DNA of 18,194 nt from Candidatus Hermodarchaeota archaeon (GTDB lineage: Archaea > Asgardarchaeota > Thorarchaeia > Thorarchaeales > Thorarchaeaceae). Location: contig JBHLLF010000049.1 in assembly GCA_048885865.1 (NCBI GenBank), forward strand, positions 1 through 18,194, written 5' to 3'. Shown here piece after piece: positions 4,166 to 4,610 of the stretch. The position numbers and the translations under genes are program-made. Positions within the stretch are counted from its first letter, which is position 1. The number at the start of each line of letters is the position of its first letter. The notes under the pieces are model-generated. The model saw only the letters and a list, made by a program, of their open reading frames with translations, was not told the origin of the DNA and searched no databases.

Positions 4166-4610
4166 AAGGACTCACTGGGTAGTCCCAATAGCGGGTCTGA
4201 TGCTGGTCGCAGGAATAGCTGTGGTAGTCTATCGGCGGGTCAGGCGTTCACATCGACCCGAGGGCTTTGTGACTACTGCTGAGCCTGCCAGCCCAGGACT
4301 GGAACCTGGCATGGATGTGGTTGTGGATTACAAGATTAGGGATGGTAAGGTGGTGTTCGGAGTTGCCGTGCGAAATGACTCTGCGAAACCCATGAATAAC
4401 GTGCAAGTTGTGCTGGGTATACCAGACCTCACTGACACGATACAGAGCGTGGCTGCTGGCACTGTGGAGTCCGGTGACATCTCAGTAGTCGAGGTAGAGT
4501 TCGAGCTTCAGCCGGGTGCGGCTGGAGAGCTGGTCGGCATGCTGGAGTACGACTCTGTCGAGGGAGAGCACAGGATAGTGAACCTGAAGCCAGTGAAGAT
4601 TGTTGCATGA
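3..4610 (+). CDS. Giant acidic TSP3-like (Ca2+-binding) repeat cell-surface protein, C-terminal TM helix plus cytoplasmic Ig-like domain; 5'-truncated by the window
   Basis: The frame is open from position 3 (TDPNHRDTDRDTVDDGKEILQYGTNATLVDTDFDG...), so the GTG at 180 is not the true start. I counted about 53 units of D-[ST]-D-x-D-x-[LI]-x-[DN]-x-x-E-x4-5-[TS]-[DN]-P by hand. TM WVVPIAGLMLVAGIAVVVY (4176-4232) is followed by RRVRR (positive-inside), then a ~100-aa beta-rich domain. Stop TGA at 4608-4610. Confidence 0.92.
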   Translation, partial: TDPNHRDTDRDTVDDGKEILQYGTNATLVDTDFDGIKDPDEIKYLSAGFDPTDPNSFDLVVNDYDWDLDSDNLSNGQEIYLTRTNPNNADSDGDLTTDDLEDSDLDGINNYDELNVTNTLPRDPDSDDDAVKDGDEVYVLLTDPNDEDSDDDSINDYDEDFDEDNLPNGIELYVTSTDPNNAYTYGGVRDDDYDSDSDFLPNYFEVYMSQTDPLYNDTNDNGIFDWEEDPDGDELTNLEELIWDTDPLDADSDNDELTDAEEVFDTHTDPNDNDDDDDGTLDGQDDQDNDGLTNLEELRTYDTNVTLWDTDGDMIRDGIEIQVGLNATNPDSDDDALYDGWNDINSNGIYEPLLGEIGEDVDADGVVDPWETDPLNADSDNDGLEDGEEYLYGTNPLKADSDSDKLLDGEEVFDYGSSPLLNDTDGDLLDDFIEVEVTLTDPTLAMTNGTHSDYVVDSDGDGISNGDEIYIYDTSPGDLDSDDDNLSDGLEILVYGSDPLDSDSDGDLLSDYDEIVRYGTNAMAQDSDGDQLDDYTEIELLGTNATRWSTYLNGTSDYDLDVDGDGLSNGLELYGYHSNATNPDSDGDLLLDGIEVYLAGSSPTDQDTDNDGVSDYLEYMVYGTDTTGTDSDSDALSDYYEIYVSLTSPMNWDSDGDLLSDGAEVNEHGTDPNLADSDRDLLDDKREIEIVGTDPLLNDTDADGLSDWEEWVLYETDPLVADSDEDGLNDKEEIENGTDPENEDSDFDTLLDYDEIYVYETDPLNPDSDSDNIADSDEIFNSHTDPNNNDSDEDGIPDDLDDRDADGLSNFDEIYQYETNCTLFDTDGDMLGDGYEVLISDTNPFKIDSDDDLLSDWDEIFRYSSNPNRKDTDGDLLQDGEEALTWHTLLNDTDTDNDMVNDYDEIKVFETNPLDYDTDDDSLSDGQELFVYNTDPLKEDSDSDLLLDAQEVVIGTNPLKKDSDGDTLTDFEENNKTLTDPLLFSTQGNGVSDALWDMDNDKLTNKQELTLTLTNPRVQDSDSDGKIDGDDDEDRDILTNYQECAITKTDPRNRDSDNDGISDYNDDEDGEGLTNGEEVLLGTDPLKADTDRDSLDDREEVEDYNTDPLSKDTDLDLLEDAEEVEDYGTDPLSNDTDLDLLSDWEEVVLTLTDPTTNMTYGVLDSLYDSDGDGIGNLEELRTLGTNPGDPDSDNDDIDDGLEIIIGTDPLNSDSDSDSLLDGAEYYIYNTSPLSNDTDQDMLRDYDELFVYMTSATRNDTDGDLVLDFDEVMVYFTDPQEADGDLDTLTDYEELFIYFTNPNLPDTDDDSLYDGFEAEVLGSNPLSNDTDSDLLADGLEYHTYGTDLLNEDTDRDGWTDYEEVAIYGTNPLQADSDQDGIMDSQDFNPRTHWVVPIAGLMLVAGIAVVVYRRVRRSHRPEGFVTTAEPASPGLEPGMDVVVDYKIRDGKVVFGVAVRNDSAKPMNNVQVVLGIPDLTDTIQSVAAGTVESGDISVVEVEFELQPGAAGELVGMLEYDSVEGEHRIVNLKPVKIVA

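Follow-up and report, generated by a model that had tools for sequence, protein, structure and literature searches.

We analysed an 18,194-nucleotide stretch of DNA (hereafter the window) from a Candidatus Hermodarchaeota archaeon (GTDB family Thorarchaeaceae), which is the entire contig JBHLLF010000049.1 (C49) of a 3.58 Mb assembly (GCA_048885865.1; 117 contigs, 87% complete), and in particular the C-terminal tail of a giant surface protein encoded at its left end. The immunoglobulin (Ig)-like beta-sandwich that closes this protein is a member of a family of cytosolic Asgard sandwiches, which elsewhere form the membrane-proximal half of a two-part appendage of the adaptin/COPI type, and the giant is a new architecture of this known Asgard domain. 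The explanation that best covers the whole, and that we favour with reasonable though not high confidence, is that the surface giant ends inside the cell in a sandwich of the Asgard appendage family, which serves as a docking surface for a cytosolic partner. Until now, adaptin-appendage-like domains of Asgard archaea were on record only in soluble proteins, most of them linked to ESCRT; here one is attached to a surface giant at its inner end. This protein was not found described in the literature that links Asgard archaea to thrombospondin or to integrin and FG-GAP.

The open reading frame of the giant (frame +3) extends from base 3 to the stop codon at 4608-4610 and encodes 1,535 residues; the gene is truncated at its 5' end by the contig end, and window positions 3-4610 hold its 3' two thirds. 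Residues 1-740 were found at the very end of contig C6 (G000:C6:125083-127305). With residues 1-740 of the nearest full-length ortholog this piece shares 93% identity. Its C-terminal 25 residues recur as the first 25 of the open reading frame (ORF) in the window and, judged by this overlap, the two joined are one protein of about 2,250 residues. The C6 piece opens with a signal-peptide-like start (MRHRDILLALAFVLILAGL...) and contains an FG-GAP/BBS2/BBS7-like beta-propeller (Pfam). From the N-terminus, the predicted order would be signal peptide, propeller head, TSP3 repeats, one helix, a basic stop-transfer stretch, a conserved linker and the cytoplasmic sandwich. The parts that lie in the window are as follows:

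3..4175, + strand: extracellular stalk (partial, approximately residues 717-2107 of ~2,250) of Asp-rich TSP3-type, putatively calcium-binding repeats with many N-x-S/T sequons
4176..4232, + strand: single transmembrane helix of 19 residues (WVVPIAGLMLVAGIAVVVY), the sole strongly hydrophobic segment
4233..4247, + strand: basic juxtamembrane stretch RRVRR, a positive-inside signal
4248..4310, + strand: predicted cytoplasmic linker of 21 residues with 4 Pro; its second half (4266-4310) has the core AEPASPGLEPG
4311..4607, + strand: Ig-like beta-sandwich of 99 residues and 7 strands, predicted to be cytoplasmic and ending in ...KPVKIVA (AlphaFold2 model, fold matches, BLASTP, hhalign)
4608..4610, + strand: stop codon of the giant (translation)

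The translation of 4176-4610 agrees with the first-pass annotation of this DNA, which had described a single transmembrane helix followed by RRVRR, a Pro-rich linker and a domain of about 100 residues.

Topology and conservation of the tail

Among the 19-residue windows of the 1,535 encoded residues, only 4176-4232 has a mean Kyte-Doolittle hydropathy above 1.6. All 36 full-length orthologs have one such helix, located 122-127 residues from the C-terminus, and 33 of them begin with a signal-like hydrophobic segment. The 15 residues preceding the helix contain on average 0.3 Lys+Arg and 3.4 Asp+Glu, and the 15 residues following it 4.8 Lys+Arg, so that according to the positive-inside rule the tail is cytoplasmic. 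By these sequence rules the giant would be a type-I membrane protein with its last domain inside, as had been proposed at first reading. Four other membrane-anchored surface proteins of the DxDxD/TSP3 type encoded in the same genome end about 6-60 residues past their helix in basic or low-complexity tails and have no folded tail, in line with the statement in the first-pass annotation that most archaeal proteins of this kind end soon after the membrane segment.

A reversed topology or an exported domain, which would make the sandwich an ordinary extracellular Ig domain of the CARDB/DUF11 type, appears scarcely credible to us. It could draw on a weak similarity to DUF11 repeats and on a conserved N-x-S/T triplet in strand 2, but the signal peptide and the single helix put the C-terminus inside, the basic residues are concentrated after the helix (4.8 against 0.3), and the sandwich also occurs in P0028, a soluble protein with neither signal peptide nor helix, which fits a cytoplasmic location. 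A role of the strand-2 triplet as a glycosylation site, which would have placed the domain outside, was ruled out, as the triplet is kept in the soluble paralogs of the HEAT and Vps28-C types described below and is therefore taken to be structural.

A scan of species-representative genomes identified 56 loci with orthologs of the giant, one per genome, and nearly all of these genomes are labelled Candidatus Thorarchaeota in their NCBI names, which shows the host to be an Asgard archaeon. The arrangement of transmembrane helix, linker and domain is kept in one frame in all 56 and is thus not due to chance. Complete ORFs were present at 36 of the loci (2,182-2,286 residues from the first Met). 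In a sample of 400 genomes of the phylum, the giant was found in 63 of the 85 genomes of the window's own family, and the only sister-order genome of the sample encodes a diverged ortholog of 2,196 amino acids. The short giant 'proteins' of 99-403 amino acids in metagenome catalogues all end at contig breaks and are explained by repeats that break assemblies. A stand-alone protein of 99 amino acids (P0005, P0007) was ruled out, since the contigs break off within the giant and no stop closes the frame on the upstream side, as were short complete versions of 300-400 amino acids (P0019, P0020, P0023), which are located at contig ends.

Conservation was measured as mean pairwise column identity in the alignment of the 36 complete orthologs. 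The second half of the linker (4266-4310) is the most conserved stretch of the giant (0.82), followed by the sandwich (0.73), the TSP3 stalk (0.62-0.67, a value inflated by composition), the propeller (0.46), the transmembrane helix (0.36) and the juxtamembrane stretch (0.32). In this alignment no part of the 2,250-residue surface protein is under tighter constraint than its inside end. Across 47 loci, codon positions 1 and 2 of the linker are invariant and position 3 is free, indicating selection on the peptide E-P-x-S-x-G-L-E-P-G-M-D and not on a nucleotide signal; the same freely varying third positions ruled out a concealed ribosome-binding site from which translation would begin internally at the conserved Met of GLEPGMD.

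In one metagenome-assembled genome (L046:9986-10345) an in-frame stop lies between helix and linker (RYRD*RMVKEF) and leaves a stop-to-stop tail frame of 119 codons, for which a sequencing error, a pseudogene and a split gene are all conceivable explanations.

Fold and relatives of the C-terminal sandwich

The AlphaFold2 model of the tail is a seven-strand sandwich with a predicted local distance difference test score (pLDDT) of 82 and a predicted template modelling score (pTM) of 0.75, in which the first 8 residues have a pLDDT below 50. VIA-align was used to search 48,161 PDB representatives, with a second VIA pass over Foldseek's best 1,000 chains. The top match, from the second pass, was the COPI leaf chain 9qpq_H (Z 12.9, 112 residues aligned), and the gamma-COP appendage 1r4x (Z 11.9, 113 aligned), the gamma2-adaptin ear (Z 11.2-11.3, 110 aligned), the GAE domain of GGA (Z 10.1), alpha-adaptin (Z 9.9) and the BBSome (Z 9.5) were also recovered. 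A shape search of the ESM-Atlas gave its highest template modelling scores (TM), 0.82 and 0.81 over 112 aligned residues, to beta-COP clusters; TM was 0.78 each for a Thorarchaeota HEAT_2 cluster and an Asgard PCI/E3-UFM1 cluster, and 0.71-0.73 for CARDB/DUF11 clusters. All named neighbours in a language-model feature search were adaptin/COP appendage families (0.83-0.88), found together with two unnamed archaeal clusters; these scores fall under the 0.9 level and count as a lead. The ear alignments extend over model residues 1-114 and take in the conserved linker, which thus sits at the position of their first strand, whereas the alignments to other sandwiches begin at residues 10-16. In the model, the preference for ears over other sandwiches is real but modest, amounting to about 1-2 Z units. 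Neither a generic CARDB or NPCBM domain as the best structural match nor a topology with the domain outside, the two outcomes that the first-pass annotation had named as evidence against its proposal, was found.

The closest sequence relatives of the tail are Asgard proteins. A profile of the tail matches ORFs of about 790 amino acids in 111 of the 135 genomes of another Asgard family (f22; E 1e-11 to 1e-6), and ORFs in several smaller Asgard families. P0088 (L066:2285-4645, minus strand), one protein of the ~790-residue type, aligns with the tail in BLASTP (E 4e-12, 27% identity over 110 residues) and contains, in this order, Zn-ribbons, DDRGK/E3_UFM1_ligase/PCI winged helices, the sandwich, about 130 further residues and a VPS28 C-domain (Pfam). 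The only other clear match to the tail profile in the window's genome, where a search for further carriers of the domain had been suggested, is P0029, a protein of 400 amino acids on contig C101 (G000:C101:1737-2939; L009:1737-2939, + strand; hmmsearch E 0.0036), and a comparison of the tail with the HEAT family to which P0029 belongs gave an hhalign E of 3.4e-5 (probability 72%, 89 columns). The three sandwich families (giant, Vps28-C-type and HEAT-type) are collinear strand by strand, and the giant stops exactly where the proteins of the other two types enter the platform subdomain. On these alignments the tail is a member of the Asgard adaptin-appendage-like Ig (sandwich) family, minus the platform.

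P0029 itself is modelled (pLDDT 82) as a short HEAT_2 trunk, a disordered hinge, an Ig sandwich and an alpha/beta platform (residues 275-399). In Foldseek its first 16 matches, with E-values between 2e-12 and 1e-7, consist solely of appendages from COPI gamma/beta or AP2 alpha/beta2, VIA aligned it with the alpha-adaptin appendage 1w80 (Z 15.7 over 211 residues), and members of its family carry the labels Thor-, Sif-, Hermod- and Promethearchaeota. Adaptor protein (AP) domains in Asgard archaea were reported to be 'not fused to each other' (Eme et al. 2023), and given that report the fusion of HEAT and appendage in P0029 may deserve a look of its own.

P0028 (220 amino acids) carries a giant-type sandwich (52-55% identical) fused to an unrelated N-terminal domain and is, by sequence, a soluble spin-off of the giant's tail. 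It is the third of three tandem paralogs on a 2.2-kb contig (L005:203-1858, + strand), which have in common a novel N-terminal domain of about 100 residues with conserved Cys residues and no Pfam match.

Several observations weigh against the appendage assignment, or against the docking role built on it. The tail model was built on an alignment of four sequences, and the transglutaminase C-barrels (Z 10.9-11.2, 97 aligned) and PDIP38/ApaG (Z 10.1-10.7) come near to a tie with the ears in VIA-align; Foldseek ranked ApaG, POLDIP2 and TRAP first among PDB chains, with COPI and the gamma/GGA ears after them. No Pfam or NCBIfam model reaches its threshold on the tail. Among hidden Markov models (HMMs) of eukaryotic ears none reaches its cut-off, the closest being Coatamer_beta_C with E 0.097 in 1 of 18 orthologs, and PF02883 (Alpha_adaptinC2) has no match to the tail in the window's genome. 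Weak matches are mostly to extracellular families of prokaryotes: below the curated cut-offs, the 18 orthologs gave DUF11 five times (best E 0.009), NPCBM_assoc twice, and Transglut_C and Coatamer_beta_C once each. A phmmer search of 1.84 billion representative sequences retrieved only the giant's own family and weak multi-repeat DUF11 and Calx-beta giants, a DUF11 giant being matched through 26 weak repeats. When PDB sequences were searched with HMMs of the tail and of all three sandwich families combined, no ear was returned, but only GAPDH noise and the Ig domain of a lacto-N-biosidase, which at E 0.004 is the best profile match in the PDB. Moreover, the C-terminus of the giant is the last sandwich strand, followed directly by the stop codon, and the platform subdomain is missing; and the cytoplasmic location of the tail is read from sequence rules. 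In a mixed set of 24 sandwiches (7 giant-type tails, 1 diverged ortholog, 6 of the Vps28-C type and 10 of the HEAT type), the sub-threshold matches included GAE_BBS1 (5, best 4e-4), PTHB1_GAE (3) and Alpha_adaptinC2 (2, best 1.2e-3), as well as DUF11 (8) and NPCBM_assoc (4).

We therefore do not place the tail in the eukaryotic ear families themselves, as it fails the HMM comparison and has no trunk and hinge, and the fold comparison is nearly tied. Nor do we place it in DUF11, CARDB or NPCBM_assoc, whose HMM cut-offs it likewise fails to reach and whose members are extracytoplasmic and usually tandem domains, whereas the tail is a single copy on the positive-inside side. The ear-like Ig domain proposed at first reading thus stands in part: the VIA, ESM-Atlas and language-model comparisons and the Asgard homologs speak for it, while the narrow lead in Z, the failure of all ear HMMs and the presence of the sandwich half only do not. 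The residue pattern that had been quoted as its signature is not specific to ears and, because the weak matches are mostly to DUF11 and NPCBM_assoc, is better described as a general E-set motif.

The main rival is a generic E-set sandwich with no functional tie to coats or ESCRT, acting as a membrane-locking plug or a self-clustering module; we judge it unlikely, if still to be reckoned with. The near ties with transglutaminase barrels and ApaG and the sub-threshold matches to DUF11, NPCBM_assoc and Transglut_C speak for it, as does the lack of the platform, which carries the main peptide sites in the alpha and beta2 ears, and the near-constant length of the giant (2,182-2,286 amino acids) suggests an architectural role. 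A plug, however, would not need a tail identity of 0.73-0.82 while the helix drifts to 0.36, the nearest sequence relatives of the tail are soluble multidomain interaction scaffolds with Vps28-C, PCI and HEAT modules, and the other TSP3 surface proteins of this genome have no such domain. If the tail merely clusters or anchors the giant, the fusion would be a curiosity of domain shuffling.

Fusions of adaptin/COPI C-terminal domains to Vps28/Vps23 and E3 UFM1 ligase domains have been described in Asgard archaea (Liu et al., 10.1101/2020.10.19.343400), and archaeal appendage regions consist of an Ig and a TBP subdomain, one such region being joined to a GOLD domain via a membrane helix (Makarova et al., 10.1101/2024.02.06.579148). 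The layout of P0088 is that described for Asgard Zn-ribbon/PCI/Vps28-C proteins in these two studies (10.1101/2020.10.19.343400, 10.1101/2024.02.06.579148). The Vps28-C fusions resemble the giant's tail in their homologous, collinear sandwich and in their cytosolic location (deduced for the giant from sequence rules). Unlike the giant, they are soluble, continue after the sandwich with a platform and the Vps28-C helical bundle and occur mainly in Loki-type families, whereas in the giant the sandwich comes last and is tethered to a membrane helix and an ectodomain of 2,100 residues. The HEAT_2-hinge-appendage family of P0029 shares the motif layout of the sandwich, but has a HEAT trunk, a disordered hinge, both appendage subdomains and no membrane segment. 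Eukaryotic ears (gamma-adaptin/GGA GAE, COPI and AP2) are the best structural matches across the whole tail (Z 12.9-10.1, 107-113 aligned), and the GAE ears in particular are, like the tail, stand-alone cytosolic sandwiches without a platform at the end of a flexible linker; they differ in being carried by an alpha-solenoid trunk, the carrier of the tail being a transmembrane protein, and in having no significant sequence match to it. Compared by description, the Meth_adaptin of Methanosalsum zhilinae (WP_013898578.1, 10.1101/2024.02.06.579148) is like the giant in that an appendage-like region is joined via a transmembrane linker, but it has a small GOLD domain, both appendage subdomains and an ESCRT (Vps4/ESCRT-III) neighbourhood, whereas the giant has a propeller and a TSP3 stalk, the sandwich only and a TPR/GNAT neighbourhood. 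DUF11 (PF01345), CARDB (PF07705) and NPCBM_assoc (PF10633) have in common with the tail the motif V-x-N-x-[GS]-x3-[hydrophobic]-x-N-V ... P in strands 2-3; unlike the tail they are extracytoplasmic and usually tandem, and their fold scores lie below those of the ears.

Candidate partners and possible roles of the tail

A gene for a cytosolic protein follows the giant in the window:

6242..7510, + strand: cytosolic TPR protein of 422 amino acids (from ATG) with strong TPR matches in Pfam

At 52 of 55 loci the TPR gene lies downstream of the giant in the same orientation, and at 23 the two are directly adjacent (gap <400 bp); at the non-adjacent loci, 0.4-4.8 kb of variable genes lie between the two. 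The TPR orthologs adjoining the giant in L006, L008 and L004 are 50-65% identical. Orthologs of the TPR protein (E 1e-60 or better) are confined to the window's family, where they were found in 71 of 85 genomes, and no genome of the 400-genome sample had the giant without a TPR ortholog, a co-occurrence to be read with the reservation that related genomes are not independent and that adjacent genes vanish together in broken assemblies. A closed single-contig genome of the same family has neither the giant nor the TPR gene. As a lead, the TPR protein is the first candidate partner of the tail; the adjacency could also be mere inherited gene order within one family, which would tell against a functional link.

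In the docking explanation that we favour, the sandwich and the conserved linker would form a protein-docking surface, as in ears, that would link the giant with a partner in the cytosol and have a role in positioning, sorting, anchoring or outside-in signalling. The leading candidate for this partner would be the co-inherited TPR protein encoded downstream, with Asgard ESCRT-linked or HEAT-appendage proteins as alternatives. We consider that the tail probably docks an internal partner. The suggestion of a coat-like module fused across the membrane holds as far as an appendage-type Asgard sandwich predicted to be cytoplasmic is concerned, but no coat and no actual partner were seen. We know of no coat partners in Thorarchaeota.

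A bolder version, which we regard as quite improbable, would make the giant a transmembrane coupler, in which an integrin-like, calcium-dependent head and stalk is wired to an ear-type docking module that recruits trafficking or scaffold proteins (TPR, HEAT-appendage or ESCRT-linked). If true, receptor-adaptor coupling would have a prokaryotic forerunner in which the ear is placed on the receptor instead of the adaptor.

Alternatively, the tail might be a sorting tag and the giant itself the cargo, its sandwich and linker being recognised by ESCRT-linked or adaptin-like Asgard proteins, for instance for delivery or removal into protrusions or vesicles. We give this a very slim chance. It is suggested by the homology of the sandwich to domains of ESCRT-I-like Vps28-C proteins (10.1101/2024.02.06.579148), by the unstructured, invariant linker of the GLEPGMD type, which resembles a short linear motif, and by the presence in the genome of the HEAT-appendage protein and of a sub-threshold Vps28-C-like ORF. 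Against it, no ESCRT gene was found in the conserved neighbourhood (TPR protein, GNAT protein of 1,100 amino acids, methyltransferase). To our knowledge there is also no precedent for homotypic recognition between ear-like sandwiches, which likewise counts against a sorting tag.

The tail of 125 residues with its invariant linker is a defined membrane-anchored bait and the TPR neighbour a concrete candidate partner, and together they make the question of what archaeal ears dock directly testable. The answer bears on the first links between surface contact and internal membrane or cytoskeletal machinery in the lineage ancestral to eukaryotes.

Ectodomain, gene neighbourhood and related proteins of the genome

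The stalk encoded in the window consists of 23% Asp and contains 59 DxDxD motifs. Pfam TSP3_bac matches its last 536 residues (E 7.5e-13) as well as the N-terminal part on C6 (E 1.4e-19), and in the sister-order ortholog 35 stretches are matched (E 4e-217). On the strength of these repeated TSP3_bac motifs in an exported domain, the giant belongs to the TSP3 repeat surface proteins, and calcium binding by its repeats is presumed by analogy with that family. The ectodomains of the 36 full-length orthologs contain a mean of about 35 N-x-S/T sequons each. The TSP3 region spans about 1,700 residues and is nearly fixed in length; although the giant has more than 35 degenerate repeats, their order can be aligned and total length is near-constant at 2,182-2,286 amino acids in the 36 full-length orthologs (L010-L062), which points to a stalk of set length rather than to an adhesin that varies rapidly.

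The gap between the giant and the TPR gene (4611-6241 in the window; L010-L065) is a site of variable insertions, with a length between 92 bp and 4.8 kb among 52 loci. The insert of the window contains genes for a LiaF-C-like membrane protein of 255 amino acids (4629-5396, - strand), distantly related to the LiaF-C-like protein at 12169-12933, and for a YhhN-family protein (5252-6178, + strand; its real start is probably later). Repeats of gene tails or cassettes behind the giant, as they occur elsewhere in this genome, were ruled out, since no repeat of the 3' end was present within 4200-6400. The TPR gene is followed by a convergent neighbour:

7515-10820, - strand: protein of 1,101 amino acids; GNAT acetyltransferase domain at the N-terminus, the other ~950 residues without Pfam match

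This GNAT protein is conserved beside the TPR gene, and convergent to it, in most loci (34-83% identity), and a methyltransferase gene also follows in convergent orientation. Further downstream, a block on the minus strand (12169-15491) encodes an ArsR-type helix-turn-helix protein (12920-13564), the LiaF-C-like membrane protein (12169-12933) and two multi-pass membrane proteins (13568-14512 and 14574-15491) that are alike in size and layout; the block is also found near the giant in the relatives L006 and L008.

Two other proteins of this genome have parts in common with the systems discussed above. G000:C3:133061-133462 (L075) marks an ORF of 425 amino acids with a sub-threshold match to the VPS28 C-domain (21 bits against a cut-off of 24.5), possibly an ESCRT-I-like protein of this genome. 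G000:C6:79397-81700 (L073:98-2401, - strand) encodes a soluble protein of 767 amino acids that combines an FG-GAP/BBS2/BBS7-like beta-propeller, a sandwich, an Ala/Glu-rich linker and a GTPase. Its GTPase part is of the Ras/Rab family (Pfam Ras, 7e-47), its sandwich is weakly GAE-like (E 0.016 with the three-family profile), and its propeller is related to the extracellular propeller of the giant (BLASTP 2e-8), so that the giant bears, one outside and one inside, a pair of modules that this cytosolic protein and the subunits of the BBSome carry side by side.

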